A DNA stretch of 64,000 nt. Source: Chloroflexota bacterium. GTDB taxonomy: Bacteria; Chloroflexota; Anaerolineae; Anaerolineales; Villigracilaceae. The position numbers were made by a program, and so were the translations under genes. The stretch lies in contig JABRVZ010000003.1 in NCBI GenBank assembly GCA_039961775.1, positions 83,272 to 147,271 on the forward strand, in the 5' to 3' direction. Positions within the stretch are counted from its first letter, which is position 1. Each line of letters starts with the position of its first letter. The notes below the pieces were generated by a model. The model had not been told where the DNA came from, ran no database searches, and was given only the letters and a program-made list of their open reading frames with translations. This document shows positions 27,284 through 64,000 of the stretch, piece after piece.

Positions 27284-28617
27284 GCGTGAACCCCGTCGAG
27301 CAGAGCGCGCAGGTCTGCCAGGGCGCGTTCGGCGTAAGCCCTGCCGCGTTCCCGTTTGTGGACTTTCGCCTCCAGCGGCGGCAGGATGCCAAAATTTGCC
27401 TTCATTGGCTGAAAGTCCTTGAGATCGGCATGCGTGACGTAGTGACACAATGCGCCGAGCATGGTGGTGGGAGGCAGGGTGAGCGGTTCTTCTCCGTGAA
27501 GCAGGCGCGCCGCATTGACGCCCGCCAGCAGACCGGTGGCAATGTTGCCCATGTAGCCTTCCACGCCCGTGATTTGACCGGCGAAGAACAAGTCATCGCG
27601 CTGGCGGAATTGCAGGGTGGGGCGCAGGAGTTTGGGTGAGGCGATGAACGTGTTGCGGTGCATCTGCCCGTAGCGCAGGAACTCGGCGTTTTCCAAGCCC
27701 GGAATCATGCGGAAGACGCGTTTTTGCTCCGGGAATTTCAGGTTGGTCTGGAAGCCCACCATGTTATACAGGCTTCCCGCCAGATTGTCCTGACGCAATT
27801 GCACCACCGCGTACGGACGTTTTCCCGTGCGCGGGTCGCGCAGCCCTACCGGGCGCATGGGACCGAACGCGAGCGAATCCAGCCCGCGTTCTGCGATGAT
27901 TTCCACCGGCAGACAGCCCTCGAAGAATTGCCCCGCCTTCACGCCGCTTTTGATGGCATCCTCGAAGGAGCGCAATTCGATGCGTTCGGCTTGCAGGAGC
28001 GCCTCCACGAAGGCGTAATACTCTTCCTTCGTCATCGGGCAGTTGATGTAATCGCCCTCCTCCTGCTCCCCTGTGCCGTAGCGCGAGGCGCGAAAAGCGA
28101 TGTCCATGTTGATTGAATCGGCGTGGATGACCGGCGCGATGGCGTCGAAGAAAAACAGGTGTTCCTCGCCGCTCAGCGCTGCAATGGACTGTGACAACGC
28201 CGGCGAAGTCAACGGCCCGCTGGCGACGATGGCGGGGGCGCTCGGTATCTCCCGCACCTCCTCGCGGACGATTTCGATTCGGGGATGCGCTTCGATGCGC
28301 TCGGTCACTTTGCGGGCGAACAGTTCGCGGTCCACTGCCAGCGCTCCGCCCGCCGGCAGAGCCGCCTCCCCGGCGCATTCCAACAGCATCGAGCCGAGCA
28401 GACGCGCCTCTTCCTTGAGCAGACCGGAGGCGCGGTCGGGAAGGTTCGAGCCGAGCGAATTCGAGCAGACGAGTTCCGCCAGGTCTGGGGTCTGATGCGC
28501 TCCCGTCGGCACCTGGGGGCGCATCTCGAAGAGGCGCACGTTCAATCCGCGCTGGGCGGCTTGCCAGGCGGCTTCACTTCCAGCCAGCCCGCCGCCGATG
28601 ATGATGAGTTCAGTCAT
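27280..28617 (-). CDS. trmFO: Folate/FAD-dependent tRNA (uracil-5)-methyltransferase
   Basis: [58 protein letters not shown]. Confidence 0.97.
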
Positions 28618-28671
28618 ATTTTGATTCTACCATTTCACCTCTGCGGATTCCCCTGCTGTATAATTGCTTCG

Positions 28672-31293
28672 ATGACCGAAACCGCCGCGATTGAACTCCA
28701 ACTCAAAGAAGCCTGCCAGTTGACCGACGCCGCCTGGTCGGCGCTGGTGGAGCGGGAAGCGGGAAAGTGGCGTGTGGCGGCGCACTATCATCTGGGGAAG
28801 AAATCCCACTCTGCGCTTGTTAAATTCCTTGAAGATACTGAAGTGGACGCCTGGCTTTCCGGCGCGTTGAGCGGAGGAGGCAGCCGTTCTGTTTCTCTGC
28901 CCTCCTCGAGCGCCCTGCGGGTCGAGCGCCTGTATGCCTTCCCGGTGGCGGGGGCTTCTCAGGTGGTCCTGGCGGGGGCGGGATTGCTCAGCCTGCCGGC
29001 GCAGCGCATCTGGCGGCTGGCAGTGAGCGGCATCCGCGCGGAGTCAGCCCATCCTGAGTCGCCCGCTTCCTCGGTGGCGGCGTCTCTCCTGATGCCGGAT
29101 TTGAACTCCGAAAGCCCCTACGACCTGCCGCGCGCCCTTCACCGCGCTCTGGATGCCTTCACCCGCCTCGTTCCCGTACAGGGAGCCTGGTTCGCCATCC
29201 GGCGGGCGGACTCTCTCGAAATCCGCGCCCAGTGGAACGCGCCTGCCCTCGCCGACCTGGTTCTGCAGATTGACGCCCATTCCCTTCTGCGGCGCATGAA
29301 CCGTAACCTCACGCCCGTCGCCGTTCAGCGCGGCGATGCGCTGTGGGCGCAGATTCCGCACAAAGGGCTGAAGGCGGGCGTCAAAGCCTGGATTTGCGTG
29401 CCGCTGGTCATCGGTCAGCGGTTGATCGGCGCTGTTGGCATGTGGCGTTCTTCCAACTTCAAAGCAGAGGAATGGAACCGCCTCGTGGATCTGGCAACCC
29501 AGATTGCACCGGCGCTCGAAACGCTCATCACGTTTGCCGAAATGGCAGGACATTTGCGCCGTCTTGCCATGCTGAACGACTTTGCTCTTACCGTTGCCAC
29601 CGGGCGCAGTCTCGACCAGATTGCGCGGCGTCTGTTTGCCCTGCTTTCCCGCGCTTTCGGCACCGAGTTGATTGTGCTGGATTTGTTCTCCTCCGAAGAC
29701 GTGATTCAGGAATACCGCATGGAAGCCGGAAACCTGGTCTCCATCCTGCGCAGCGCAGAGGGGCATCCCATCTCCCGCCTGCTGACCAGCGACCAGATGA
29801 TGCGGCTGAGCGACATGGGGGCAGAGTCCGCTTTACCGTTATACAACGGCGCACTTTCGGGCATCTACGCGCCGCTGCGCCTGCGCGGTCAACGCATTGG
29901 GGCGCTGAGCGTGGAAAGCCGGTTGAGGAATGCCTTCAGCCCATACGATGAAAGCCTGCTGGTTGTGCTCGCCAGTCATCTCGCCAGCCTGGCAGATTAC
30001 ACGCGCGTCCGTGAGGAGGCGGAGGGCAGGGCGAGGAACCTGGGGGTCATCCATGAGGTCGTTCAGCAGATTGTCGGTCTGACCGACTCCCGCCAGGTGG
30101 CGGAAGCCACTGCCAGCCTGCTGGCGCGGTATTTTTCCTACGAACTCACGACAGTTTTTATTGCCGATGAAAGCGGCAGCCTGACCATCAGCGGCTTTGG
30201 CGGCGTCAGCCCCAATGTGGTGCGGCGGGCGATGAAATCCGTCACCTACCCTGTGCGCGGCGGCATTACCGGCTATGTCTTCGAAAGCGGACGCGGCGTT
30301 CTGGTCAACGATGTGCTGCAAGATGAGCGTTACACGCCCATCAAAGGCTGGCAGGCAGGGTCGGAGATGTGCGTGCCCATCCGCGACGCCTCGAAGGTGC
30401 TGGGCGTCATCAATGTGGAGAGCAGTTCGCGTAATGCCTTCACCCATAACGATTACATTGCCCTCGAGTCGCTGGCGGGCATTCTGGCGGCGGTCATCAC
30501 CAGCGCCAACCAATATCAACGGCTGCAAGAGACCATCTATCAACTGCGCGAAACCGAGATGGAACTCAACGCGCGCATGGAAGCGCAGCGGCTGGCGGAG
30601 AACCGCCTCGTCCAGGCTGCTAAATTGGCGGCGGTGGGCGAGATGGCGGCGGGCATTGCCCATGAATTGAACAACCCCCTCACCTCCGTGACCGGCTTTG
30701 CCGAACTGGTGATGAACGACCTCCCCGACGATTCGCCTCTGCGCGCCGACCTGGACCTGGTCATCCGCGAGGCGCGCCGCGCGCGCGACGTGGTCCGCCG
30801 CCTGCTCGATTTTGCCCGCCAGAGCGAAAGCGCCCGCGCCAATGCCTCGCTGAACAAGGTGGTCGAAGACGTGGTAGCGCTCACGCGACATCTGATTCAC
30901 ACAAACGGGGTAGAATTGCGGCTGCATTTGCAGGAGGATTTACCCTGGGTTTCCATGGACGAAAACCAAATGAAACAAGTCCTGCTCAACCTTGTTCACA
31001 ACGCCCTGCAAGCCATGCCGGGCGGCGGTCAACTGGAGATACGAACCGCCGCTGTCCCCAAAGTGGGACGCGAAGGCGTCATCGTCTCGGTGCGCGACAG
31101 CGGGGTGGGCATTCCTCCGGAGATTCAAACCCGCATCTTCGAACCGTTCTTCACCACCAAAGCCAACCGCGGCGGAACGGGGCTTGGGCTTTCCGTCACT
31201 TACGGCATCGTTTCTGCACACGGCGGCGAAATCGAACTCATCAGCCAGCCCGGCGCCGGCTCCACCTTCACCGTCTGGCTTCCGAAAGGGTAG
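28672..31293 (+). CDS. Multi-GAF sensor histidine kinase
   Basis: Several GAF units (VPLVIG.RLIG; APLRLRG.RIG; VPIRD..KVLG), AHELNNPLT, NLVHNALQA, GGTGLGL. ATG 7 nt after TATAAT. Confidence 0.9.
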   Translation: MTETAAIELQLKEACQLTDAAWSALVEREAGKWRVAAHYHLGKKSHSALVKFLEDTEVDAWLSGALSGGGSRSVSLPSSSALRVERLYAFPVAGASQVVLAGAGLLSLPAQRIWRLAVSGIRAESAHPESPASSVAASLLMPDLNSESPYDLPRALHRALDAFTRLVPVQGAWFAIRRADSLEIRAQWNAPALADLVLQIDAHSLLRRMNRNLTPVAVQRGDALWAQIPHKGLKAGVKAWICVPLVIGQRLIGAVGMWRSSNFKAEEWNRLVDLATQIAPALETLITFAEMAGHLRRLAMLNDFALTVATGRSLDQIARRLFALLSRAFGTELIVLDLFSSEDVIQEYRMEAGNLVSILRSAEGHPISRLLTSDQMMRLSDMGAESALPLYNGALSGIYAPLRLRGQRIGALSVESRLRNAFSPYDESLLVVLASHLASLADYTRVREEAEGRARNLGVIHEVVQQIVGLTDSRQVAEATASLLARYFSYELTTVFIADESGSLTISGFGGVSPNVVRRAMKSVTYPVRGGITGYVFESGRGVLVNDVLQDERYTPIKGWQAGSEMCVPIRDASKVLGVINVESSSRNAFTHNDYIALESLAGILAAVITSANQYQRLQETIYQLRETEMELNARMEAQRLAENRLVQAAKLAAVGEMAAGIAHELNNPLTSVTGFAELVMNDLPDDSPLRADLDLVIREARRARDVVRRLLDFARQSESARANASLNKVVEDVVALTRHLIHTNGVELRLHLQEDLPWVSMDENQMKQVLLNLVHNALQAMPGGGQLEIRTAAVPKVGREGVIVSVRDSGVGIPPEIQTRIFEPFFTTKANRGGTGLGLSVTYGIVSAHGGEIELISQPGAGSTFTVWLPKG

Positions 31294-31303
31294 GGAATTT
31301 GCC

Positions 31304-32890
31304 ATGGAATCCGCTTCTGTCTTTGTCGTTGACGACGAAGCCGGCATTGCCTTGCTGTGCAGCCGCGTCCTGACGCGCGCCGGCTACGAAGTCCAATCCG
31401 AAACCAATCCCCGCGCCGCAGTCGAAATCCTCGGTCAGCGCCGCTTCGACCTGCTCCTCGTGGACATTCGCATGCCCGAAGTGGACGGTTTCGACGTCAT
31501 CTCGCGCGCCAAACGCGCCCAGCCTGATATTGCCGTGCTGGTGATGACCGGCTTCGGCACCGTCGAAACCGCCATCCGCGCTTTGCGCCAGGGAGTGGAT
31601 GGGCTTTTGCTCAAACCATTCGAAAAAGGGGACGAACTGATTGCCGCCGTGGAACAGGCGCTTACCGATAACCGCCGCAAGCGCGAAACCGCCCGCGCGC
31701 AGGCGCTCCGTCCCCTCTTCGACGCCACCGAACGGCTGTTTTCCGAGACCAACTCAGACAAACTGTACCCCCTTATCGTTGACACGGTTTGCGAACATTT
31801 GCAATGTCCCAACGCCGCATTTTACCGGCTGGAGCCGAACGGTTTTTCGCTGGTCTCCAAACGGGGGAACGTCTTGCCGGTAGAGGCGGGCGGCTTTGCG
31901 GCTGACCTTCTGCAAAGGGTGGCGTCAGATGGGAAACCGATCCTCGTCAACGCCACAGGACCGGGGGAGAAAGAGGCGCAGGCGCTTCTTTCGGACCTCA
32001 AACTTGGCGCGGCAATCCTGATTCCAATTTCACGCTCAGACCTGCGCGCCGTCCTGTTTGCCGCAAGAGACGCAGGCGTGGCTCCTTTTCGCGGCACCGA
32101 CCTGGAGCTGTTCCACATCCTTGCCAGCCAGTCGCTGGTGGCGTTGGAAAACGCCCGCCTGTACGCCGACCTGCGCGCCTATGTTCGCAAAGTGGAAGAA
32201 TCCCAGCAGGCGCTCCTGCGTTCGGAAAAGATGGCGGCGGCGGGCAGGCTGACGGCTTCGATTGCGCATGAAGTCAACAACCCTTTGCAGTCTGTGCAGA
32301 ACTGTCTGCACCTTGCCGGGCGCGAAGACCTGCCGGCGGAAAAACGCAAACAATACTTCGAGCTGGCTCGCTCCGAACTCGAACGTCTGATGAAAACCAT
32401 GCACCGTATGCTCGATTTCTACCGCCCCGGCTCGGTCAAAATGGAAAAGGTGGATGTGTTGGAACTGCTGAAGCATGTGCTCAGTCTTACCTCCCAGCAG
32501 TTGGGGCAGCGGCACATCGAGGTCATCGCCGAACTGCCCGAGTCTTTGCCCCCGGTGCTGGCGGTGAGCAGTCAGATTCAACAAATTTTCATCAATCTGA
32601 TTTTGAACGCCTTCGACGTGATGCCCGGCGGAGGCGCGCTCTACATCCGTGCGAAAGAGCTGGAAAACGGCGTGGAGATACAATTCGAAGACACGGGACC
32701 CGGCATACCCGAAGAACTGCGCAACAACATCTTCGAGCCATTCTTCAGCACCAAGGAGGGCGGCACCGGTTTGGGGCTGACGGTGAGTTACAATATCGTC
32801 ACCGCGCACGGCGGCACATTGGACATTGTGAAAGGAAGCGGCGATGGCGCCTGTTTCCGCTTATTCCTGCCCACGGGAGAAATATCATGA
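31304..32890 (+). CDS. REC-GAF-histidine kinase
   Basis: VVDDE...LVDIRMP...KPF receiver, then GAF, AHEVNNPL, NLILNA, GGTGLGL. Confidence 0.9.
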   Translation: MESASVFVVDDEAGIALLCSRVLTRAGYEVQSETNPRAAVEILGQRRFDLLLVDIRMPEVDGFDVISRAKRAQPDIAVLVMTGFGTVETAIRALRQGVDGLLLKPFEKGDELIAAVEQALTDNRRKRETARAQALRPLFDATERLFSETNSDKLYPLIVDTVCEHLQCPNAAFYRLEPNGFSLVSKRGNVLPVEAGGFAADLLQRVASDGKPILVNATGPGEKEAQALLSDLKLGAAILIPISRSDLRAVLFAARDAGVAPFRGTDLELFHILASQSLVALENARLYADLRAYVRKVEESQQALLRSEKMAAAGRLTASIAHEVNNPLQSVQNCLHLAGREDLPAEKRKQYFELARSELERLMKTMHRMLDFYRPGSVKMEKVDVLELLKHVLSLTSQQLGQRHIEVIAELPESLPPVLAVSSQIQQIFINLILNAFDVMPGGGALYIRAKELENGVEIQFEDTGPGIPEELRNNIFEPFFSTKEGGTGLGLTVSYNIVTAHGGTLDIVKGSGDGACFRLFLPTGEIS

Positions 32891-33621
32891 AACCCAACAT
32901 CCTTGTCGTTGACGATGAGCCTGTTGCACGTCAGTCGCTTTCGGACATTTTGCGCCTCGAAGGGTATGCGGTCAGCGCTGTGCCAAATGGACAGGCGGCG
33001 GTCGAATATGTCCGCACACATCCCATTGACTTGATGATCGTGGATTTGCGCATGCCGGGCATGGACGGGCTGGAGGTGGTTCAGGTTGTCAACCAGATTT
33101 CGCCGGAGACTGAGATCATCCTGCTCACCGCCTACGGCACAACCGAATCTGCCATTCAGGCGCTGCGTTTGCGTGTGCACGATTATCTGCTCAAACCCGC
33201 CTCCCCCTCGCAGGTCATCAACAGCATCAAGAAAGGGCTGGCGCGGCGGGATGCACGCCTGAAGGCAAAGGGCGGATCAGTTTCGGCGGATGTGGAAGAA
33301 GCGCCCCTCGAATTTTCCCTCCCCGACGGCACCCGCATCGACCTCTCCCGCCGCCTGATTCAGAAAAAAGACCAGATGATTCATCTGACGCCCGCCGAAG
33401 GGCGGCTCCTGCGCGTCCTCATGGAAAATCCGGGAAGGGTGTACACCCACCGCGAGCTTGTCCTGCTTGTGCAGGGCTACGATACGTCCCAGCGAGAGGC
33501 GCCAGAGATTTTGCGTCCGCTGGTCAGCCGCCTGCGCCACAAACTGGAGGCTTTTCCGTCCCTGTCGCGGGCAATCGTCAGCGTGAGGGGGACGGGCTAC
33601 TTGTACGAAGTGGAAAAGTAG
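32887..33621 (+). CDS. OmpR-family response regulator
   Basis: Receiver (VVDDE, DLRMP, KP) plus winged helix (LTPAEGRLL, VSRLRHKL, VRGTGY). Confidence 0.93.
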   Translation: MKPNILVVDDEPVARQSLSDILRLEGYAVSAVPNGQAAVEYVRTHPIDLMIVDLRMPGMDGLEVVQVVNQISPETEIILLTAYGTTESAIQALRLRVHDYLLKPASPSQVINSIKKGLARRDARLKAKGGSVSADVEEAPLEFSLPDGTRIDLSRRLIQKKDQMIHLTPAEGRLLRVLMENPGRVYTHRELVLLVQGYDTSQREAPEILRPLVSRLRHKLEAFPSLSRAIVSVRGTGYLYEVEK

Positions 33622-33630
33622 CGTAAAGAA

Positions 33631-33659
33631 CAGACCTCCGGCTGGAAGCCGGAGGTCTG
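33631..33659. terminator. Hairpin between convergent genes (probable terminator)
   Basis: CAGACCTCCGGCT / AGCCGGAGGTCTG, 13-bp perfect stem. Confidence 0.7.
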
Positions 33660-33662
33660 GGT

Positions 33663-34604
33663 TTAATGCTTGTAAAAGTCTGTGGGGAATTCGGGCGGTT
33701 GCAGCCAGGAAAGAAGTCCCCTGGCGTAAAGCGGTCGGTTGACCGGCTTCTCGAACCAGACCAGCAACAGGCTGGAACTCAATCCGGCTGTTCCTATCCA
33801 TTGCCAGGAGGTGAGCGTTTCGCCGAGCAAAAGGTGGCTGAACGTGATGGCGACCAAAAGTTCGGCAAGACCGAGCAGGGCAGTTTGCATCCCGCCGATG
33901 TTCTTGACGCCCAAAAACAGCAGGAGCCGCGAGCCAAAGGTGACCGCTGTCAGCCCCAGCACGGGCATCCATTGAGGATCGGCAGGAGGGGGCGGGCTGG
34001 CGATGAAATAGGCAGGAACGACGATGGCGCTCATCGCCAGCAGGGTGTACACGGTCACGGTGGGGGCGGGAACGTCGTACAACACCCGCTGATTGACCGG
34101 TAAATGCAGGGCGTAGAGCGCGGCAGAAATCAGCATAAAAATTACGCCGGTCAGGTTGATACCTCCCGAGTCGACGCGGGTCAGCAGAAGCGCCGAAAAA
34201 CCTGCGATAACGATGCGAATGACGGTCAGGCGGGAGGGCGGTTGTCCGTCCAGTTGCAGCCAGAACGCCACGAACAAGGGGTAAAGGGCATAAAGCATTT
34301 GCGCCACGCTGGCGTTCAATTTACTCAACCCCACATAGTAGAAAATCGAACCAATGCCGTTCAATGCCCCAGCCAGAAGACACCCATACAGCCCCGCCGG
34401 GTAGATATACAAATACTGCCGGCGGAAGATGAGCATAATCAATACAAGCAGCGCCGCCGCTATGCTTGTGCGAAGCGCCACCACCGCATAGGGTGAGAAC
34501 TGTCCCTCTCCCATTGCCGCTTTGCCAAACACGGGAGCCATGCCAATGAGAGCGGCTGAAATCAGCGCGGCGCTGATACCCTGGGAGCGTTTTTTTTTCG
34601 ACAA
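33663..34604 (-). CDS. DMT/EamA-family transporter
   Basis: About 10 TM in two repeats; YYVGLSKLNASVA...YPLFVA; LAELLVAITFSHLLLGE. Confidence 0.88.
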   Translation of the reverse strand: MSKKKRSQGISAALISAALIGMAPVFGKAAMGEGQFSPYAVVALRTSIAAALLVLIMLIFRRQYLYIYPAGLYGCLLAGALNGIGSIFYYVGLSKLNASVAQMLYALYPLFVAFWLQLDGQPPSRLTVIRIVIAGFSALLLTRVDSGGINLTGVIFMLISAALYALHLPVNQRVLYDVPAPTVTVYTLLAMSAIVVPAYFIASPPPPADPQWMPVLGLTAVTFGSRLLLFLGVKNIGGMQTALLGLAELLVAITFSHLLLGETLTSWQWIGTAGLSSSLLLVWFEKPVNRPLYARGLLSWLQPPEFPTDFYKH

Positions 34605-34745: not shown

Positions 34746-36422
34746 TCACTTGATCAAGGCGCGGACTTCTTCGAGAAATTCGTCGTTCAGAAAATCACCC
34801 TTGAGCATCAGGGACTGGATTTGCCCCTGCAGGCGGCTTTTCTCGTCCACAGTCAGTTCCTTGGCGGTGGCGACGATAACGGGGATGTTGGCTGTCTCCG
34901 GCTGACTGCGCAGTATATCCATGACGGTGAAGCCGTCCATTTCGGGCATCATCAAGTCGAGAATGAGAAGATCGGGGCGTTCGCGGTTGACCAGTTCGAT
35001 GGTTTCGCGCCCGTTGACGGCTTCGAAGATTTCAAAATCACCCTGCGACTGCAAAATTCGGCGGATGAGGCGGCGCGCCTCGGCGGTGTCATCTGCCACC
35101 ACCACGCGCGGGAAGCGGTTCGGCGTCACATTGTTGAGGGCGGAGAGCAGCCCCTCTTGCGGGGTCTCCGCTTCTACCTGTTTATGGCGCAGGTCAATAT
35201 CGCGTGTCCAACCTTCGCCGAACAGATATTGCTCGGCGGGCATGGTGTGACCGGTGCAATTCACCACTACTACATCATCCGGCTTGATTATGCCGGCGCG
35301 CACCAGTTTGAAAAGCCCGGCAAAGGCAGTCGCAGAGGCGGGTTCAGCGGAGATGCCCTCCATCTTTGCCAGCACGTGCATCGCGCGAAAGGATTCTTCA
35401 TCCGAAACGCTCTCGAAGACCCCGCCAGTTTCATTGACCTGTTTGCGCAGCATGACGTAGGTGCGCCCAGGGTCGCCGGTTGCCAGCGTTTCGATGCGCG
35501 TTTTGGGCGAGCGCACCGGCTCGGCTTTTTCGAGCCCTTTGCGCCAACTCTCCACCATCGGCGCACAGCCATCCACCTGAATTGGGGCGATGGCAGGGAT
35601 GCGGTCAATCAGCCCCAGCGCCTTCAACTCACGGAAGCCCTTGTACACGCCGAGCGGTCCCAGCCCTCCGCTGATGGATTGCACATACCAGTCGGGCGTG
35701 CGCCATTTCGGACGGTCTTCTGTGGACTCTGGCGGAGCGCCGTTTTGCAGGGTCAACTGTTCGGCAATTTCGAACGCCAGCGTTTTCATTGCCTCCACCG
35801 CTGTGACCGTGCGTGCGCCCATGTCCTGATACAAACCACGCTGGCGGGCAAACTCTGCCGCCATGATTTTCGCCTCATCGTAGGAGCCGGTGATTTTGAC
35901 CACCTGACTGCCATACAGGGCGATCTCGCGCATCTTGACCCCCGGAACGAGGCTGGTGACGAACGCCCAAAGTTTGATCCCCGCCCGAGCCGCATACGCC
36001 GACAGCGAGATAGCGACATTGCCTGTGGAGGCGGCAACCATTTCAGTGATGCCCGCTTCCTTGAGCGCGGCAATCGTCAGCGCCGCCTGCCGGTCCTTGA
36101 AGGAGGAGGTGGGTCCCTGGCGCTCGTCCTTGATGTAGAGATTGTTCAGCCCCAGCATCATTCCCAGATTGACGGCTTTGATGAGCGGCGTGCCGCCCTC
36201 GCCAAGCCGCAGGCTGGGATTGGGGTTGTGAATGGGCAGGAGTTCCTTGTAACGCCACAAATCGAACTCACGGTTTTTCAGTTGTGACGGAAAGGTTTTT
36301 GCCACCTCCGCCATGTCGTATTCGGCTTCGCGCCACTGACTGGAGCAATTGGGGCATTGCATGGAACTGGGCGTGAAGGGAGCGGCATGCCCGCAATCGA
36401 GACAACGAATGACAAATGACAT
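34746..36422 (-). CDS. Threonine-synthase-like PLP enzyme (N-terminal Zn ribbon) fused to a C-terminal receiver domain
   Basis: CLDC...CPNC, LGEGGTPL, SFKDR (PLP Lys), ASTGN, EPASA. C-terminal VVADD...LILDLMMPEMDG...TAK...KG. Confidence 0.88.
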   Translation of the reverse strand: MSFVIRCLDCGHAAPFTPSSMQCPNCSSQWREAEYDMAEVAKTFPSQLKNREFDLWRYKELLPIHNPNPSLRLGEGGTPLIKAVNLGMMLGLNNLYIKDERQGPTSSFKDRQAALTIAALKEAGITEMVAASTGNVAISLSAYAARAGIKLWAFVTSLVPGVKMREIALYGSQVVKITGSYDEAKIMAAEFARQRGLYQDMGARTVTAVEAMKTLAFEIAEQLTLQNGAPPESTEDRPKWRTPDWYVQSISGGLGPLGVYKGFRELKALGLIDRIPAIAPIQVDGCAPMVESWRKGLEKAEPVRSPKTRIETLATGDPGRTYVMLRKQVNETGGVFESVSDEESFRAMHVLAKMEGISAEPASATAFAGLFKLVRAGIIKPDDVVVVNCTGHTMPAEQYLFGEGWTRDIDLRHKQVEAETPQEGLLSALNNVTPNRFPRVVVADDTAEARRLIRRILQSQGDFEIFEAVNGRETIELVNRERPDLLILDLMMPEMDGFTVMDILRSQPETANIPVIVATAKELTVDEKSRLQGQIQSLMLKGDFLNDEFLEEVRALIK

Positions 36423-36497
36423 TTGCTGATTCTTTCTTTTTGCCGCCCCAGAACTATACCAGGCGGCAAACAGTCTTTAGAATATTGTTGGGACGGC

Positions 36498-39400
36498 TTA
36501 ACCGCCAATTCGTTTGAGTGCGTTTTCAATGCTGGCAATCAAATCGTTTTCGGTGAGCGATCCCTTGGCAATGAGCCTTTTGCCGTACTCGGCAAGTTGT
36601 TTGTGCTGTTCGTTGGTGAGCCCGCCGCCGCTGACCACCAGTACCGGTATCTCGCGGAGCGCCGGTTCTTCCATCATTTTTTCGAGAATCATGAAGCCAT
36701 TCATCTCCGGCATGAAGATGTCAAGAATGACGGCGTCTGGCGGATTGGTGTTGAGGATTTCCCAGCCGCGGCGTCCGCCTTCGGCAAGAACTGGTTGATA
36801 TTTGCCGTGTTCGGTCAGGATTTTTTCGATGAGGCGTAAGTCGTTGGGGTCGTCATCAACGACCAGCACGCGGCGGATTTTGTCGTTTTTGTCGAGGCGT
36901 TCCAGCGCATGGACAAGGTCTTCTTCGAGAATGGGTTTGACCAGGTAGTCTGCCGCGCCGAGGGTGAAGCCCTTGTCGGTTTGTTCGACGATGGAACAGA
37001 TGATGATGGGCACGTCTCGCGTGGCAGGATCAGATTTGAGGTCGGTCAGAACCGACCAGCCATCCACGTTGGGCATCATGATGTCGAGGGTCACGGCAAA
37101 GGGGTTGATTTCCTTCACTTGTTCCTTTGCCCTGGCAGGTTCGGTCAGAGCGACGACGTGGTATCCCTGCGGCGTGAGGTAGCGTTCGTAGAGACTGATG
37201 ACCTGCGGGTCGTCGTCAATGGCAAGCACAATTTTTTTGCCCGCCGGAATTTCCCCGGCTGGCTGGCGGAAGAGCGGCATGGTGAACCAGAAGGTGGAGC
37301 CTTTGCCCTCCTCACTTTCGACGCCGATGCGCCCCCCATGGAGTTGAACGAGGTTGGCGCAAATGGAGAGACCCAGTCCCGAGCCGCCCGTCTTGCGGGT
37401 GGCGGAGCCATCCACCTGCGAGAACGCCTTGAATAGTTTTTCCTGACCTTCCGACGATATGCCGGGACCGGTGTCGATCACTTTGATGAGCGCCTCGAAT
37501 TTTCCGTTTGGCGCTTTTTGCACGGAGGTCTCGACGGTGATGAAGCCCTCGTCGGTGAATTTGGCGGCGTTGGAAATCAGGTTGAGCAAAATCTGACGCA
37601 CACGCATCGTGTCGCCGCGGACAGTGGGCATTTCCGGCGGAACCTTTTCGATGAGTTGGATGGGCTTTTCCTTGACAAGTCCTTTCGCCGTGGAGAAGAC
37701 GCTGTGAATCATCTCGGCGAGGTGAACTTCCTCGAAGTTGAGTTCCATCTTGCCGGCTTCGATGCGTGCCAGGTCGAGGATGTCGTTGATGAGTCCGAGC
37801 AGGTGCTGACCCGAATTGTAGATGGCGGTGAGGTCCTGCTGCTGCATGTCGGTGATGGGACCATCTATGCCCTTCAGGATGACGCGCGAGAAGCCGATGA
37901 TGGAGTTCAGCGGGGTGCGCAGTTCGTGGCTCATGTTGGCGAGGAACTGACTCTTGAGTTTGTCCACTTCCTGGAGGTTCTTGATGAGTTCCTGCGATTC
38001 AAGGTACAGGGTGGCGTTGTTGATGGCAACGGCAACCTGGTCTGCCAGAGATTGAAGGATGGAAAGCGCATCGGTGGTGAAGGCGTGCGGCTGGGTAGAT
38101 TGAATGTCAATCACGCCGAGCGCCTTGCCGCTGACCTTGAGCGGAATGGCGACCTCTGATTGCGTGTCGAGCAGGAGCGGGTTGGGCTGGTACAGGCGGT
38201 CGGTGGCGGTGTCGTTGACAATGACGGTGTCACCTTTTTCCGCCGCTTTGCCTACGATGGTTTGCGAGCCGACGGGGACCCTGTATCGTTGGGCTTTCAT
38301 TTTTTCGCCGGCGCCGCCTGTCGCTTCGCGCAGGATGACATGGTAGCCGTCTTCGTCCATCTGATAGATGGCGGCGAAGTAGAAGCCTAGGCGGTCGCTG
38401 ACCAGATTGACGGTCTGTGCGAAGATCGTGTTGAGGTCGAGCGTGGAGGTGACGAGCCGCCCGATTTCGGCGGAAGCGGCAAGGTAGATGTTGCGCCGCT
38501 CCAGGGCTTCTCGGGCTTCCAGGCGTTCCAGCGCGGCGGATGTTTGAGCGGCGATTGCCTCGAGGATTTCTTCGTGCTTTTCTGTGAGGCGTATGGCAGG
38601 GTTATAGGTCTGAACCGCCATGACGCCTCGTACCGCGCCGCGGCTTTTCATCGGCACCCCAAGCCAGTCCACGCTGGGAGCGCCGTCGGAGACAATTTCG
38701 CCGCTGGCTTCGAGGTCGGCAAAGATTTCCGGAGTGACGCGCAGGCGTTTACCGGAACGGATGACATAAGAGGTGAGCCCGCGCCCCAGTTTGCGAGGCG
38801 CCCAGTCGTCGTCGTATTCATCCGCGTGATAAGGGAAGGTAATCTGTTGAATCTCCGGGTCGTAGAGCGCCACGAAGAAGTTTTTGGCTGGCAGAAGTGG
38901 TTGAACGGATTCGTGTACGGTGCGGAGTAATTCTTCTGCTGATTGAGCCGTCAGAGCGCTCTCGGTGATGTGCGTGATGGCGTCCTGGGTGAGTTCGTTG
39001 ATCTTACGGTCGGTGATGTCGTGCGCCACCCAAAAGACCTCGGTTTCGCTCAACTTGGAGACGTTGGCGTCGAACCAGAAGCGGCTGCCTTGAATTTCCA
39101 ACGGATATTCGATGCGCACAATTTCATCGCTATTCAACGCATCGAGGATGGCTTTCATAACCGGTTCGCAAAGGTCCGGCGGCAGGACATCGCGGATGTT
39201 TTTTCCCACCATTTCGTCGGGGGGGCGAACCAGCAGGGAGGGGTTGGTGGGTGCGATGCGGACGTAGGTGCCATCCTTGTCGTACACGATAATGACGTCA
39301 TTCATGGCGGCGAACAACGCCCGCAGTTCTGCCTCGGAGCGCTTGGTCTCCTGGAATAGACGGGCGTTTTCGAGCGCCAGCGTCAGTTGGTCGGTCACCT

Positions 39401-39716
39401 GACGGGCGAGCAGTTGGTCTTCCTCCGTCCAGACACGCTGATTGGTTTCATCAACAACCTGCAGGGTCGCCCAGGTATCGGTGCTCAGTTTGAAATCCAG
39501 CGCCAGGGCGGTTTCCGTGAGGGGTGCCGCTTTGGCGCGGCGAACAATGCCGGGGTGTTTTGCTGCCGGCAGTTCCTTGCCCGATACCGCTGCAGGCGGC
39601 TGGGACGCGCCGGCAGGAGCAACCGCCTGAGGTTCGACGCTCGGTTCTTCGTGCTTGATGTCTTCGAATAGTTTGTCAAGCCGCCTGTCGAGCGGTTTCT
39701 TCTTTGGCATATTCAA
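36498..39716 (-). CDS. Hybrid histidine kinase: basic peptide / half-GAF / PAS / GAF / GAF / HisKA / HATPase / REC / REC
   Basis: ANMSHELRTPLN, NLISNAAKFT, DTGPGI, GGSGLGL. Two receivers (TLDIMMP; ILDIFMP). Start may be at 39710. Confidence 0.93.
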   Translation of the reverse strand: MNMPKKKPLDRRLDKLFEDIKHEEPSVEPQAVAPAGASQPPAAVSGKELPAAKHPGIVRRAKAAPLTETALALDFKLSTDTWATLQVVDETNQRVWTEEDQLLARQVTDQLTLALENARLFQETKRSEAELRALFAAMNDVIIVYDKDGTYVRIAPTNPSLLVRPPDEMVGKNIRDVLPPDLCEPVMKAILDALNSDEIVRIEYPLEIQGSRFWFDANVSKLSETEVFWVAHDITDRKINELTQDAITHITESALTAQSAEELLRTVHESVQPLLPAKNFFVALYDPEIQQITFPYHADEYDDDWAPRKLGRGLTSYVIRSGKRLRVTPEIFADLEASGEIVSDGAPSVDWLGVPMKSRGAVRGVMAVQTYNPAIRLTEKHEEILEAIAAQTSAALERLEAREALERRNIYLAASAEIGRLVTSTLDLNTIFAQTVNLVSDRLGFYFAAIYQMDEDGYHVILREATGGAGEKMKAQRYRVPVGSQTIVGKAAEKGDTVIVNDTATDRLYQPNPLLLDTQSEVAIPLKVSGKALGVIDIQSTQPHAFTTDALSILQSLADQVAVAINNATLYLESQELIKNLQEVDKLKSQFLANMSHELRTPLNSIIGFSRVILKGIDGPITDMQQQDLTAIYNSGQHLLGLINDILDLARIEAGKMELNFEEVHLAEMIHSVFSTAKGLVKEKPIQLIEKVPPEMPTVRGDTMRVRQILLNLISNAAKFTDEGFITVETSVQKAPNGKFEALIKVIDTGPGISSEGQEKLFKAFSQVDGSATRKTGGSGLGLSICANLVQLHGGRIGVESEEGKGSTFWFTMPLFRQPAGEIPAGKKIVLAIDDDPQVISLYERYLTPQGYHVVALTEPARAKEQVKEINPFAVTLDIMMPNVDGWSVLTDLKSDPATRDVPIIICSIVEQTDKGFTLGAADYLVKPILEEDLVHALERLDKNDKIRRVLVVDDDPNDLRLIEKILTEHGKYQPVLAEGGRRGWEILNTNPPDAVILDIFMPEMNGFMILEKMMEEPALREIPVLVVSGGGLTNEQHKQLAEYGKRLIAKGSLTENDLIASIENALKRIGG

Positions 39717-40461
39717 TCAACTCCTGAGCGAGGACACGATATTGCTGCGAGCCGCGGCTGGTGGGTTTGTAGTGAATGATGGGCACGCCGGCGATCGGGC
39801 TTTCCCTGAGTTTGGTGTCAATTTCGATGACGGTGGTAAAAACGCCCTGCCCAAAGGTGGCTTGCAGCTGCTCGAAGATATTGCGGTGTGTGCGGTTGCG
39901 GCGGTCGAGGAGGGTGACCAGAATACGGTAGGCAAGCGCAGGATTGACTTCCTGACGGATGCGGCGGATGGTCCCCATCATGTTGCGCAGCGCGTAGGCG
40001 GAGAAGTATTCTGCCTGGGTGGGGATGATGAGCAGGTTTGCAGCGGCGAGCGCGTTGAGGGTGATCGCTCCGAGGGCGGGCGGGCAGTCGAACAGGATGT
40101 AGTCGTAGGGAAGCGGTTCAGCCGCCAGTGCGTCGCGGAGTGTGGTCAGGTAATGATTTCGCATGGGCAGGAATTGCTCCGCATTTTCGATGCGAAAACT
40201 GGACGGCACCAGGGAAAGGTTACGAATTTCGGTGGCGCGGACGGCGGTTTTAAGGGGCGCGCCTTCAATCAGCACGTTTGCCGAGGTGATGCTTGTCTCG
40301 TCGGTTTCCAAACCAAGGGCGAGCGAAAGGTTCGCCTGCGGGTCGAGGTCCACCAGCAGGACGCGGTAATTCAGTTCGGCAAGCGCCGCGCCCAGCGAAA
40401 GCGTGGAGGTGGTTTTGGCGACGCCTCCCTTTTCGTTCGACATTGCGATTGCGTATGCCAT
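39676..40461 (-). CDS. ParA/Soj-family ATPase (orphan, no adjacent parB)
   Basis: KGGVAKTT deviant Walker A, DLDPQAN, DCPP, LIIPTQAEY. Confidence 0.92.
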   Translation of the reverse strand: MAYAIAMSNEKGGVAKTTSTLSLGAALAELNYRVLLVDLDPQANLSLALGLETDETSITSANVLIEGAPLKTAVRATEIRNLSLVPSSFRIENAEQFLPMRNHYLTTLRDALAAEPLPYDYILFDCPPALGAITLNALAAANLLIIPTQAEYFSAYALRNMMGTIRRIRQEVNPALAYRILVTLLDRRNRTHRNIFEQLQATFGQGVFTTVIEIDTKLRESPIAGVPIIHYKPTSRGSQQYRVLAQELIEYAKEETARQAA

Positions 40462-40462
40462 C

Positions 40463-42976
40463 TTACTTGTCCTTTCCGTCCGAAGCCTTGGGCAGGATTT
40501 CCACACGGGTGGCGCCAAGCGCCTGACGCAGTTCCTGCAGGGCGGTTTCGATCATGGCTTGCGGGTCGTTATGGTTGCGTATCTTGCCGGTGATTTCCGA
40601 GACCAGCCGTTCGCGTTCGGCGCGGCGGGTTGTTTCTTCGAACAGGCGGGCGTTTTCTGCGGAGAGCGCCACGCGTTCCGCCACCGCCTGAATGAGGTCT
40701 TTTTCGTCCTCACCCCATTGGGATGCGGATGCAGATTGGACGACCAGCCTGCCGATGACTTCGCCGCGCAGTTCGATCGGGACGACAATCGAGGTTGTTT
40801 CAGCCTTCTCAGCCTTTTTCTTGTCTGGAAGCGGCATGTCCAACTTGATGGGCTCGGTGAGGGGCACTGCCCCCATGGTATTGTAGCGGTAGCCGAGCAG
40901 TTTTTGGCTGTGCGGCAAACGTTTCCATGCTTCGCGAGTGGACTGGCGCATGAGTGTTTGCAGTTCTTCAAGCGCGCGGTTGGAAGCATCGAACAGACGC
41001 GCATTTTCGATGGCGAGGCTTACCTGTTCGGCGAGCAGACTGAGCGTTTGCACGTCTTCTTCGGTGAAGGCGCCGACTTCCGTGCTTTGCACGTCGAGCG
41101 CGCCGATGACTTTGCCGCCGCTGAAGAGGGGCAGCGCCATTTCGGAGTGGGTGTCGGGGAGGTCGGGGTTGTTGAAGTAGACGGCATCCACCCCGACGTC
41201 GAGGGCGATGCGCGGTTTTCCGCTTCCCGTCACGCTGCCGACGATGCCTTGTTCGCCTACTTTCAGGCGGTGTCGCCTTGCCAGCATTCTCTGACCGCCT
41301 TCGCTGTTAGCCGCGGCAAGTACGGCGTATTCGTTGTTTTCATCGAGCAGGAAGATGCCGACATGGTAAAAGCCGTACTTTTCGCTGATGACCGACGTCA
41401 CGTGCGGGAGGAGTTCCTTGGGGTCGCGGATGGAAGCGATGGATTGGGCGACCTGCGCCATTGCCTCGAATTGTGCCGCGCGGCGGTGAAGTTGGGCGTT
41501 TGCCGCTTCCAGCTCACGTCCGCGTTGTTCGACTTCCCGGGTGCGTTCGGCGACGCGCATTTCGAGCGAGTCGATGGATGTCTTGAGTTCCGCCGCCATG
41601 GCGTTGAGGGTGGAGGCAAGGGTGCCGATTTCGTTTTGCTCGGTGATGGCTGCGCGCGCTTCCAGGTTACCTTTTGCCATTTCTTCGGCGGTACGGGTGA
41701 GCGAAAGCAGAGGGGCTATCAGGCTGTTGCTGAAATTGCGGGTGGCGAGCAGGGTGAGCCCGAAGATGCCCAGAACGACGAAGAGACTGATGCCCAGCGC
41801 ATTGCGGCTTTCGCGTTCGAGTTGTTGGCGGGCTTCCAGCGCTTTGGCGAGCATTTCATTGACCGGTACGATGATTGCCAGGCTGAAGCCCGCGCGTTGT
41901 ACCGGGCGGTAAACGACGAACCTCCTGGTGCCGTTCAGGCTGAGTTCTGTGAAGCCGCTGTTGCCGGCGGTCATTTCGGTGAGTATGGGCGCGAGTTCTC
42001 TGGCGGTGCTTCCCAGGTTGGTGGCAGTGAGTTTGCCTCCCAGCGGTAACATGTTCGGGTTGATGTTCAGATCGGCGTAGCCCGCATTGGGCATGGCAAT
42101 CAGCCGCCCGTCGCGGTCGAGCAGGAATGCGTAGCCGCTCTCTGCCACGCTGATATTACCGACGATTTCCGAGATTTTAGTTAGTTGAATATCCTGCGCA
42201 ACGACGCCAGCCAGTCTGCCTGCCGCATCGTAGACCGGCGCGCTGTTGGTGATGACAATACCGTTGAGCGCGGCGTCCAGATACGGCTCTGACCAGACCG
42301 CCCCTTTGCCAGGATTTGCTTCCGGCGCCGCCGCCGTGTACCAGGGTCTGCCGGTGACGTCGAAATCGGGAGGGACGATGGCGGCAAGGTCTATGTTGGG
42401 GTAATAGAGCGTGTACCCCGAAGAACCGCCAAAGTACACGGCGATGACATCGGGATTGGCTTCAAGGATGGAGGGGGCAATCAAGTCCATGTGGCGGATG
42501 ATGTTCAAATCCGCTTTCATTGAGTCGGAGAGGTCGGCTGCGGCAGGGATAAATACGGAGCCGATTTCTGTGTTGGGGTTATCCCAACTGCCCTTGTCGT
42601 TGCGGGAAAGCGATGTGCCGGCGTCCCAAAATGCGCCGGTTTCGAAAGACTGCCGGTTCAGCAGAAGGTTCTGGTCATATTCTCTCAACGAGAGGATGCC
42701 TGCCTCCAGCGACGCGAAAAAGTTCGATAAAGTTTCTGTCTTTCGGTCGGCTGTAATGGCAAGCAGGGTCTCGGCTTCATTACGTGTGGCGGCGTCGAGA
42801 CGTGAAATCAGGGCGGAGTTGGTCTGCCGCGTGCGGATGAATACGAAGACGCCCATGATGGCAAGCGCCAGAAACACGATGGCAATACTGCCGCGAACCA
42901 GCCTGTTGCGAATGGACGGCTGAGGCGCTGAATAGGATTGCGGAGAACCGCCGGTGGGTTTCACTGCATCTGTCAT
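40463..42976 (-). CDS. TM-dCache-TM-HAMP-GAF receptor with split-GAF tail, no catalytic domain
   Basis: FDVTGRPWY..WSEPY dCache, HAMP EIGTLA, conserved GAF, PIELRGEVIG...ENARL...RERLVSEI tail. ATGA overlap with the upstream gene. Confidence 0.85.
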   Translation of the reverse strand: MTDAVKPTGGSPQSYSAPQPSIRNRLVRGSIAIVFLALAIMGVFVFIRTRQTNSALISRLDAATRNEAETLLAITADRKTETLSNFFASLEAGILSLREYDQNLLLNRQSFETGAFWDAGTSLSRNDKGSWDNPNTEIGSVFIPAAADLSDSMKADLNIIRHMDLIAPSILEANPDVIAVYFGGSSGYTLYYPNIDLAAIVPPDFDVTGRPWYTAAAPEANPGKGAVWSEPYLDAALNGIVITNSAPVYDAAGRLAGVVAQDIQLTKISEIVGNISVAESGYAFLLDRDGRLIAMPNAGYADLNINPNMLPLGGKLTATNLGSTARELAPILTEMTAGNSGFTELSLNGTRRFVVYRPVQRAGFSLAIIVPVNEMLAKALEARQQLERESRNALGISLFVVLGIFGLTLLATRNFSNSLIAPLLSLTRTAEEMAKGNLEARAAITEQNEIGTLASTLNAMAAELKTSIDSLEMRVAERTREVEQRGRELEAANAQLHRRAAQFEAMAQVAQSIASIRDPKELLPHVTSVISEKYGFYHVGIFLLDENNEYAVLAAANSEGGQRMLARRHRLKVGEQGIVGSVTGSGKPRIALDVGVDAVYFNNPDLPDTHSEMALPLFSGGKVIGALDVQSTEVGAFTEEDVQTLSLLAEQVSLAIENARLFDASNRALEELQTLMRQSTREAWKRLPHSQKLLGYRYNTMGAVPLTEPIKLDMPLPDKKKAEKAETTSIVVPIELRGEVIGRLVVQSASASQWGEDEKDLIQAVAERVALSAENARLFEETTRRAERERLVSEITGKIRNHNDPQAMIETALQELRQALGATRVEILPKASDGKDK

Positions 42977-45834: not shown

Positions 45835-47770
45835 TTTGGCTTCCCATCGTGTCCGCATGGAGTTGTACCAGCACTTCGGAGCCGCCCAGGGCGCGGCTGA
45901 GTTCTTCCACGGCGGTGCGCAGGATGGCGTCAATCTGGGTGGTGGCGGTGATTCTGCTGGAGATGTCGGTGGTGATGCGTTCGAGTTCTGCGCGCCGCTG
46001 GGTGGTTTTGAGCAGCAGCGAAGTTTCGAGCGCCAGTGACAGGCGTTCTGCCACGGCTTCGGCAATGTCCACTTCGTCTTCATCCCATTCGTGTTCGCCG
46101 CGGGTGTGGATGTCGAGCACGCCGATTACCTCGCCGCGCAGGCGAATGGGAACGGCAAGCGTGGCGTTTACGCCGCTTTCCGCCACTGTCTGTTTTTCGG
46201 TCAGCGCTTTGCGGTTATGAGCGTTCATCCACGGACGGGAGAGAGGCGCAACTTCATCGCCGGATGCCTTGAAGCCGATTCTTGCGCTGTCGGCTTGCAG
46301 AATGCGCCAGGCGTCCTGCAGGTAGGCGACGGATGTTCTTTGGGCTTTTTCCAGCAGTTCCTGCATGGATTCGAAGGAGCGGGCATTTTGAATTGCCACG
46401 GCAATCTGGTCGGCAAGGGTGGTCAGCACGCGGACGTCTTCCTGCTGGAAGGCGTTGGGCTGGGTGCTTTGTACATCCAGGACGCCGATGGTTTGTCTGC
46501 CGATGATGAGAGGCAGGGCAATTTCGGAGCGAGTTTCGGGGAGGTCGGGATTGTCGAAGTACACGGCATCCGCTCCCACGTCCAGGGCGATGCGGGGAGC
46601 GCCGAGGGCTGAGACGTAGCCAACGATGCCGGTCTGCCCGACCTTGAGCTTGTGTCCGCGCGCGAGCATTCTCTGTCCGCCGGGGCTGTTGGCGGCGCGC
46701 AGGACGGCGTACTCGTTGTTTTCGTCCAGGAGGAAGATGCCCACATGGTAGTATCCCATCCGCTCGCTGATGGCGGTTGTGATGCGCGGAAGCAGGCTTG
46801 GCAGGCTTTCAAGGGAGGTTGCGGCTTTGACGATTTCTGAAATGATTTCGAGCTGACCAGCGCGTTTTTCGAGCGTTTCAACGGTCTGTTGAATTTCTTC
46901 GTTTTGTACGTTCAGGCTGGCGGCTTGACGCCGAAGTTGCTCCTCGTCTGCCTGCTGAACGGCGAGCAGGTCGTTGAAACTTTCGATGACCTGGTTGAGT
47001 TCACGGATGCCGGTGTGCAGTTCCAGCCGTTTGCCTGCTTCCCGAACGCTGGAGGTGGCTTTCGCCAATTCCAACACGGGATTGGCAATTCGTGTGCCTG
47101 CCAGCCAGCCCAGCGCCGCGGCGCCTGCGGCGGACGCCAGGAACAAAAGCACAAAGGTGCGGAAAAACTCCTGTTGTTGCGCCAGGATGTCCTGTGCCAG
47201 AATATCCACGCCGACGATGCCTTCCAATTGCCCGTCGGAGCGGTAGAACGGAGCATAGGCGGTCAGGTAGGTGCCGAATTCATCGGTGTAGAACTCGGTT
47301 TCGACTGCCGGGGCGCGCAAGGTATCGAAGTTTTCAAGCAGGAACCCGCTTGGGCTTTCATAAACCGAGCCAATTTCAACCGGCTGGTACTCTTCGGGCG
47401 GTGCGCCGGGTTCGTGACCGGCGTCCAGGACGAAGTAGATTTCACCCGCTGTATTTTTGCGCATGGTGTACACGTACAGGATTTCCGGGTCGGTGGCGGC
47501 AATGGCGAAGCCTTTGGCTTGCAGTTCCCGGTAGGCGTCGGTGTCCATGTCGGCAGGGGTTTGCAGTTGCGCATGGAGGTCGCCGTTGATTTGCAGGGCG
47601 GCGTTCGCGGCAATGGCTGTCAGTTTGTGCTGCTTTTCGCGGAGCAGGTTATTGCGCGCTTGCGAGTAGGAAAGCGAAATTGTCAGCGCACTGATGAGCA
47701 CACCGGCAATGGCAAAACCAATGGCAAGACGGAAGCGCAGGCTGGTCAGCCGTTCCATTAAGGCTTTCAT
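45827..47770 (-). CDS. TM-single Cache-like-TM-HAMP-GAF receptor with split-GAF tail
   Basis: YVYTMRK..YFVLD...YTDEFGTYLTAYAP...GVD sensor, conserved GAF and tail. ATGA overlap. Confidence 0.85.
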   Translation of the reverse strand: MKALMERLTSLRFRLAIGFAIAGVLISALTISLSYSQARNNLLREKQHKLTAIAANAALQINGDLHAQLQTPADMDTDAYRELQAKGFAIAATDPEILYVYTMRKNTAGEIYFVLDAGHEPGAPPEEYQPVEIGSVYESPSGFLLENFDTLRAPAVETEFYTDEFGTYLTAYAPFYRSDGQLEGIVGVDILAQDILAQQQEFFRTFVLLFLASAAGAAALGWLAGTRIANPVLELAKATSSVREAGKRLELHTGIRELNQVIESFNDLLAVQQADEEQLRRQAASLNVQNEEIQQTVETLEKRAGQLEIISEIVKAATSLESLPSLLPRITTAISERMGYYHVGIFLLDENNEYAVLRAANSPGGQRMLARGHKLKVGQTGIVGYVSALGAPRIALDVGADAVYFDNPDLPETRSEIALPLIIGRQTIGVLDVQSTQPNAFQQEDVRVLTTLADQIAVAIQNARSFESMQELLEKAQRTSVAYLQDAWRILQADSARIGFKASGDEVAPLSRPWMNAHNRKALTEKQTVAESGVNATLAVPIRLRGEVIGVLDIHTRGEHEWDEDEVDIAEAVAERLSLALETSLLLKTTQRRAELERITTDISSRITATTQIDAILRTAVEELSRALGGSEVLVQLHADTMGSQND

Positions 47771-63688: not shown

Positions 63689-64000
63689 TTAGTTGTATTC
63701 CCAAACGGGTTCGCCCGCCAAAATGCGGCGAATCTGGTCGGGGAAACGATCGGGATCGAGCGGTTTGCCAAGAAACCCGTCGAAGCCGGAAGCGCGGGCT
63801 TTTTCCATTTGATCCAGGCTGGCTTCGGCAGTGACCGCGATGATCGGGATGTTCTTCAGTCTTTCCGACGCCCTAATCTTTTTCAGCGCGCCGTACCCAT
63901 CCTCGTAGGGCAGGCGAATGTCCATCAGGATCAAATCGAGGCGTTGGAGCGTATCGGCATATTCCACCACTTCGTAGCCGGAAGTCTTCCATTCACAGTG
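63689..64000 (-). CDS. Single-domain CheY/DivK-like response regulator (5'-truncated by window edge)
   Basis: Frame is open to the window end; LILMDIRLP, IIAVTA, GFDGFLGKP. Confidence 0.9.
   Translation of the reverse strand, partial: HCEWKTSGYEVVEYADTLQRLDLILMDIRLPYEDGYGALKKIRASERLKNIPIIAVTAEASLDQMEKARASGFDGFLGKPLDPDRFPDQIRRILAGEPVWEYN

Follow-up and report, generated by a model that had tools for sequence, protein, structure and literature searches.

Can a receiver domain control an enzyme of amino-acid metabolism directly? The outputs of response regulators are almost always DNA binding, cyclic di-GMP turnover or chemotaxis enzymes, and the question is raised by a gene for a fusion protein, P0001, in which a predicted zinc ribbon and a threonine synthase (ThrC)-like pyridoxal phosphate (PLP) domain are joined to a receiver domain (REC). 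The gene is located in a stretch of 64,000 nt (hereafter the window) from a Chloroflexota bacterium of the Villigracilaceae (assembly GCA_039961775.1, contig JABRVZ010000003.1, positions 83,272-147,271 of the forward strand). The original prediction, made from the letters of this DNA, held that the output of the system was a directly phospho-regulated metabolic enzyme and not a transcription factor. Here we establish the architecture of P0001, the intactness of its PLP and REC residues, the rebuilding of its substrate pocket, its paralogy with thrC and the synteny of the kinase, fusion and transporter genes. Coordinates of all the features are given in Table 1.

Architecture of the fusion protein

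Pfam analysis of P0001 revealed a PALP match of 213.9 bits and a Response_reg match at residues 440-540 (68 bits, gathering score 30.2), and no DNA-binding domain. Full-length orthologues, aligned over residues 1-558, were 44-100% identical. The ribbon cysteines C7, C10, C23 and C26 were invariant in 102 of 102 fusion homologues, and the AlphaFold2 (AF2) model placed paired strands at residues 3-7 and 31-35 with a predicted local distance difference test score (pLDDT) of about 88. The PLP lysine K109, within the motif SFKDRQ, was likewise invariant across the 102 fusions. The closest PDB sequences were the ThrC entries 2ZSJ and 1UIM, with E values of 5e-44 to 8e-42, and Foldseek matched P0001 to ThrC with a template modelling (TM) score of 0.85 at 31% identity. 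This fold search returned no structural relative closer than ThrC, the cysteate synthase CapA2 being ranked 12th. The REC matched CheY-like receivers in PDB at an E value of 1e-19 and carries the acidic pair D444/D445, D489 (LILDLMMP), T519 and K541. The Pfam domains and these residues together bear out the zinc ribbon, the fold-type-II PLP core and the intact receiver that had been noticed in the sequence. Mean pLDDT of the AF2 model was 81.9, with residues 393-421 of the linker disordered. In the REC, beta1-beta4 were predicted and alpha4-beta5-alpha5 were modelled as helix (pLDDT 46-55) from a shallow alignment of 34 rows.

Table 1. Features of the P0001 locus. Positions are those of the window unless a locus is named; residue numbers are those of P0001.
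Feature	Position	Strand	Description
Fusion gene P0001	34746-36422	-	Open reading frame (ORF), 558 aa, ATG start; zinc ribbon, ThrC-like PLP domain and REC
N-terminal predicted zinc ribbon, residues 1-35	36318-36422	-	C7-x2-C10 and C23-x2-C26
Fold-type-II PLP domain, residues 72-390	35253-36209	-	Pfam PALP; Schiff-base Lys109 at 36096-36098
Remodelled substrate loop, residues 200-214	35781-35825	-	DMGARTVTAVEAMKT; replaces ThrC N-S-x-N-P-x-R-x-E-G-Q-K-T; alignments
Inter-domain linker, residues 393-436	35115-35246	-	AF2 pLDDT <50 for 393-421
Receiver domain, residues 437-558	34749-35114	-	Pfam; predicted phospho-acceptor Asp489 at 34956-34958
EamA/DMT-family transporter gene	33663-34604	-	Pfam EamA, 97 bits; downstream of the fusion
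Terminator-like hairpin	33631-33659	-	13 pairs, 9 GC; just past the EamA stop; likely operon end
Hybrid histidine kinase P0002	36498-39716	-	Upstream; Pfam PAS-GAF-GAF-HisKA-HATPase-REC-REC, no Hpt; likely phosphodonor
Kinase-fusion spacer, 75 nt	36423-36497	-	GC hairpin, then A-rich sequence, no U-tract
ParA/MinD-like ATPase gene	39676-40518	-	Pfam AAA_31/CbiA; between sensor array and kinase
Eleven tandem sensor-GAF genes	40463-63673	-	Pfam dCache/HAMP/MASE11 and GAF; co-directional with the kinase
Two stand-alone receiver genes	L130:3-404 and 397-813; window about 63731-64000 and beyond	-	Head of the co-directional block

The substrate site is rebuilt

Alignment to solved ThrC structures confirmed that the loop before the EGQKT position has been remodelled, as originally predicted: vNSvNPyRiEGQKT of ThrC corresponds to dmGArtvtAvEAMKT in P0001, STGNT to STGNV and GNAGN to SGGLGP. 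Residues of Thermus thermophilus ThrC were numbered as read off the PDB alignment, in which K61 corresponds to K109 of P0001. Five of them, T88, N154, S155, R160 and N188, known from work on ThrC as the ligands of the phosphate of O-phosphohomoserine, are replaced by V136, G202, A203, A208 and Gly252/253, respectively. All the replacing residues are small or apolar, and the pattern is fixed across the 102 fusion homologues. The Schiff-base lysine and the S-T-G-N loop (S132, T133, G134 and N135) are ThrC features that have been kept, being invariant or nearly so. Across the family, the logo of the substrate loop is D-x-G-x-[RK]-x-[IV]-x-x-x-E-[AS]-M-K-T, with G202, M212 and K213 invariant, and the glycine loop is S-G-G-x-G-P-x-G. 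An Arg or Lys is present at position 204 or 209 in 101 of the 102 homologues; the loop thus appears to have been remodelled rather than emptied, and an anionic group may still bind there.

Family models gave a concordant picture. P0001 scored under all six NCBIfam equivalog cut-offs for ThrC, with 250.8 bits against 303 for PRK08197, its best-scoring model, and 148.7 against 167.1 bits for TIGR00260. It was also under the cut-off for cysteate synthase (TIGR03844, 105 against 324.9 bits). A canonical thrC (310.8 bits) is present on contig C128 of the same genome (98.8% complete), and the gene directly after it was identified by eye as homoserine-kinase-like (thrB). The genome has four ThrC-like genes in all, those beyond the fusion and the canonical thrC being two zinc-ribbon ThrC-like paralogues. 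One of these, on contig C34 (L002:1297-2466, minus strand), is a solid PRK08197 member at 595 bits and adjoins a GHMP kinase gene that is galactokinase-like by eye; the other is on contig C90 (L003:1327-2595, plus strand). Among 31 genomes of the same family, 21 have a canonical ThrC copy above 280 bits. At none of the loci examined was hom or thrB adjacent to the fusion gene. By every test available at the level of sequence, then, P0001 is not the housekeeping ThrC. The proposal that its substrate is probably different from O-phosphohomoserine is well supported by the replacement of the five phosphate ligands, by scores below the ThrC and cysteate synthase cut-offs and by the separate thrC-thrB pair.

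Distribution and origin of the fusion

Thousands of database proteins have the fusion architecture, and the only names they carry are 'pyridoxal-phosphate dependent enzyme' and, where pipelines assigned them, 'threonine synthase'. When 401 Chloroflexota genomes were scanned for full-length matches (residues 1-558), the fusion was detected in all 23 sampled genomes of the family to which the window belongs, and was scattered in other families. Several genomes carried a second paralogue at 45-47% identity, and two paralogous clades (A and B) were recognised across Anaerolineae. In species-representative genomes at least 593 stretches encode relatives, and the best 80 of these loci all belong to Chloroflexota, namely Anaerolineales, Villigracilaceae, Bellilinea, Longilinea and Promineifilaceae metagenome-assembled genomes (MAGs).

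Residues invariant or nearly so in the 102 fusions include the four cysteines, K109, the Asn loop, G202, E210, M212, K213, the Gly loop and C286, and in the REC D/E444, D445, D489, T/S519, A520 and K541 were conserved. Mean identity to P0001 was 68% for the PLP domain, 59% for the REC, 44% for the ribbon and 43% for the linker. The fusion might in principle have been an artefact of assembly or gene calling, or a gene in decay. We give this practically no credence, as it is refuted by an uninterrupted frame, free of internal stops, in more than 100 independent assemblies that include closed genomes, and by the invariance of the catalytic residues. The fusion is a real, selected, old and conserved family.

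An IQ-TREE phylogeny of 94 PLP domains, from a short search and with a midpoint root for drawing only, placed all fusions together with one stand-alone sequence in a single clade (SH-aLRT 97). This clade was nested among stand-alone zinc-ribbon proteins in which the loop is already rebuilt. The other ThrC-like paralogues of the genome lay, like canonical ThrC, in the opposite half of the tree. Because the fusions nest within stand-alone enzymes with the same loop, the change of the pocket is, on this tree, older than the fusion, which is likely to have arisen once. Variants of the architecture were also encountered. P0125 and P0126 (708-715 aa) are fusions with two receivers, and P0127 is an outlier fusion with a degenerate receiver from which the Asp/Lys set is gone. 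P0204, a ThrC-like protein that is not related to these fusions, has a LeuA_dimer allosteric domain attached.

The adjacent histidine kinase and the transporter

A large GAF-HisKA-HATPase kinase is encoded directly upstream of the fusion in all the relatives that were examined, the most distant of them being 44% identical, and the kinase-to-fusion gap has a median of 28 nt across loci. In clade B and at some clade-A loci the kinase is non-hybrid and ends after HATPase_c with no REC, and in the closer relatives of the window it has gained one or two receivers. A receiver protein encoded just after a plain kinase is the standard layout of a cognate pair. On the other side of the gene, EamA follows the fusion in 53 of 77 clade-A loci with short flanks, at a median gap of 28 nt, some pairs being 1-2 bases apart or overlapping by 1-2 nt. 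A terminator scan of the minus strand of the window found no terminator-like site either between the kinase and fusion genes or between the fusion and EamA genes. Together with the sequence of the 75-nt gap, this upholds the earlier observation that no U-tract terminator separates kinase and fusion.

The tail of the fusion REC had been noted to resemble that of REC2 of the kinase. The likeness is genuine: the two domains are 31% identical over 124 aa (75.9 bits, as compared to 48.1 bits for REC1) and have in common the tail LT..E...L....KG, of which the K-G ending of beta5 is kept in 100 of the 102 fusions. A special kinship did not hold up, however, since REC2 was only the seventh-best match to the fusion REC when RECs were compared genome-wide. 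Derivation of the fusion REC specifically from REC2 was therefore rejected, and by this comparison the likeness is a feature of the subtype. One of the stand-alone receivers at the head of the block was the third-best match to the fusion REC within the genome. Pfam detected no Hpt in the kinase or in its locus neighbours, the single Hpt of the genome being on contig C131; a phosphorelay via a locus Hpt was accordingly rejected.

Enzymatic output, sensor or threonine synthase

With moderate confidence, we favour the reading that P0001 is a response regulator with a PLP-enzyme output under the control of the kinase, the substrate or product being moved by an EamA transporter that would be co-transcribed. 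Kinase adjacency and an intact REC are consistent with the directly phospho-regulated enzyme of the original prediction. The PLP domain, apparently derived from ThrC, would have lost the binding of the phosphate of O-phosphohomoserine and would act on another amino-acid-like substrate. It would be tethered by a flexible linker to the C-terminal receiver, in which Asp489 would be phosphorylated by the GAF histidine kinase encoded upstream. The phosphorylated receiver would then alter the activity of the PLP domain, normally a dimer, either through changed dimerisation or through release or occlusion of the active site. In this scheme we infer, rather than observe, that P0001 is a catalyst, what reaction it carries out, that P0002 is its phosphodonor and in which direction it is regulated.

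Several points weigh against an enzymatic output. The REC is C-terminal, which is the layout of sensors and hybrid kinases rather than of classical response regulators. A PLP lysine is no proof of catalysis, as the sensor domains of MocR/GabR keep this lysine too. The kinase of this genome is a hybrid with two RECs in a locus devoid of Hpt, the sole Hpt being on another contig, and the route of the phosphate is therefore ambiguous here. How the domains are placed relative to one another is not predicted with confidence by the AF2 model, whose linker and REC end are of low pLDDT, and which thus lends support to no particular structural mechanism.

Some of these features would suit a different role, in which the PLP domain is an amino-acid sensor that forms an external aldimine and tunes the attached REC, making P0001 a metabolite-gated phosphate sink or branch point. 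A C-terminal REC gives the order of input followed by receiver. Extra receivers that could compete for phosphate are found in the kinase (two), at the head of the locus (two) and, as stand-alone proteins, after clade-B fusions, and the locus has no Hpt. The pocket, moreover, is conserved, yet no reaction can be assigned to it. We consider a sensor plausible but rather unlikely, because stand-alone members of the clade with the same loop occur in biosynthetic-looking clusters, which suggests that they are enzymes. The tight and sometimes overlapping coupling to the transporter, and the presence of a GNAT or a second ThrC-like gene, fit metabolism, and conservation within the protein is highest in the PLP domain, where it extends beyond the residues for cofactor binding.

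It is very unlikely, on the other hand, that P0001 is a genuine threonine synthase, that is, a conditional isozyme which the REC merely modulates. ThrC is indeed its best match, homologues are called 'threonine synthase' by the pipelines of the Joint Genome Institute, and 10 of the 31 family genomes are without a canonical copy above 280 bits; these ten are draft MAGs in which other ThrC-like paralogues are present. Nevertheless, P0001 falls short of all curated ThrC cut-offs, and its phosphate-binding side chains have become V, G, A, A and G throughout the family. Its own genome has the thrC-thrB pair besides two more ThrC-like genes, and the fusion is never beside hom or thrB. Free phosphate is needed for the reaction specificity of T. 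thermophilus ThrC, which also counts against such an isozyme.

Comparison with known systems

P0001 shares with ThrC (EC 4.2.3.1; Aquifex 2ZSJ, T. thermophilus 1UIM/1V7C) the fold-type-II core, the SFKDR lysine, the S-T-G-N loop and a T/S-G-H motif near the cofactor. It differs in that the phosphate ligands are gone, SGGxGPxG stands in place of GNAGN, a ribbon and a REC have been added and linkage to thrB is absent. The four-Cys N-terminal ribbon and ThrC-like core are common to P0001, PRK08197 enzymes and cysteate synthase (TIGR03844; CapA2, PDB 9K3C). However, P0001 does not reach the cut-offs of these families and branches in a half of the tree that is distinct from theirs and well supported, and these relatives have no REC. 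Cysteate synthase, moreover, acts on a phosphorylated substrate, and P0001 has lost the phosphate site.

Among response regulators, CheB, PleD/WspR and RpfG resemble P0001 in having an intact receiver joined to a catalytic domain and a kinase gene adjacent, and by analogy the gating of the enzyme by phosphorylation would be the expected logic for P0001 as well. In contrast to these proteins, its REC is C-terminal instead of N-terminal, and its output would be an amino-acid-metabolising PLP domain performing a small-molecule reaction rather than modifying a second messenger or a receptor. A core under the influence of an appended regulatory region, as proposed for P0001, is also known from plant ThrC, which is activated by S-adenosylmethionine (2C2B), and from the C-terminal domain of IlvA; control of P0001 would, unlike theirs, be by covalent phosphorylation and not by metabolite binding. 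P0204, with its LeuA_dimer domain, offers a precedent for a regulatory C-terminal domain on a ThrC-like protein. MocR/GabR show that a PLP-binding domain which has kept its lysine can serve in signalling rather than in bulk catalysis, and are the basis for considering P0001 as a sensor. These proteins, however, have a fold-type-I domain and a winged-helix DNA-binding domain, with no REC and no kinase partner, so that the analogy is one of function only.

Our search of the literature, the coverage of which was incomplete, did not turn up any receiver joined to a PALP domain, ThrC-like or otherwise. Response regulators with enzymatic outputs are known; what would be new is an output in the form of a PLP enzyme of amino-acid metabolism that is fixed throughout a family of bacteria. 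Gating of a PLP enzyme by a receiver, if true, would place primary or specialised metabolism under two-component control at the post-translational level. The ThrC superfamily has already been the source of cysteate synthase, and the rebuilt pocket would point to a further, uncharacterised reaction in it. The pipeline name 'threonine synthase' is probably wrong, and it could distort metabolic reconstructions of the uncultured bacteria that carry these proteins. Chloroflexota of this sort are abundant in sludge, sediments and groundwater, and the fusion is no one-off, being fixed across a whole family of Anaerolineae.

The wider locus

In clade B, the genes on the 3' side of the fusion are either one or two stand-alone receivers together with a GNAT acetyltransferase, or an orthologue of the PRK08197-type ThrC-like gene of this genome. 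Orthologues of the ThrC-like gene on contig C34 sit right after clade-B fusions in related genomes. The contexts of the stand-alone relatives are mixed (housekeeping genes; radical-SAM/TauE/Fe-ADH; methyltransferase/epimerase), and no common pathway emerged from them. At 28285-33621 on the plus strand of the window, a second two-component set, with genes for two kinases (GAF and REC-GAF) and for a regulator of the OmpR type, converges on the EamA end, with which it is syntenic across the family.

The fusion also stands near the end of a long co-directional block on the minus strand. This block of about 31 kb has 17 genes: two receivers, eleven sensor-GAF genes, a ParA/MinD-like ATPase, a soluble GAF kinase, the fusion and EamA. 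Pfam identified no kinase, cyclase or DNA-binding output domain in the eleven sensor-GAF proteins, which are transmembrane proteins, and HAMP/dCache-GAF genes are present upstream of the kinase in relatives too. The position of the ParA/MinD-like gene is conserved in six clade-A loci (L008, L027-L029, L043 and L044); the gene is reminiscent of those ParA-like proteins by which chemoreceptor arrays are positioned. It is conceivable, if rather doubtful, that the 17 genes form one machine with the fusion as its endpoint, and that phosphorylation gates how an amino-acid-like, non-proteinogenic compound is synthesised and exported. If so, many environmental inputs would converge on a secreted metabolite whose production is under signal control. 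It might serve these filamentous bacteria as a cue between cells, and it would come from a new type of reaction within the ThrC superfamily.

The C-termini of sensor-GAF proteins (40463-50775, minus strand, last ~180 residues) contain repeated half-GAF-like modules of the form VPIxLRGEVIG...W..DE..L..AVAER.ALA.ENARL. A similar module opens the kinase P0002 at residues 60-138 (about 39303-39539), and it may be a docking or shared-fold element. In the dCache protein encoded at 40463-43468 (minus strand), an R-P-W-Y motif, typical of amino-acid-binding dCache_1 sensors, was found at residue ~374, with Phe in place of the upstream Tyr; the motif is missing from the other dCache protein, encoded at 47767-50775. 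The first ~160 codons of the 40463-43468 ORF are Arg/Pro-rich and overlap the upstream gene by about 500 nt, and translation probably starts further in, close to the Met at residue ~165. Upstream of the two stand-alone receivers are housekeeping genes, for a polyprenyl synthase, a HAD hydrolase, a member of the FMN-dependent dehydrogenase family and succinyl-CoA ligase.

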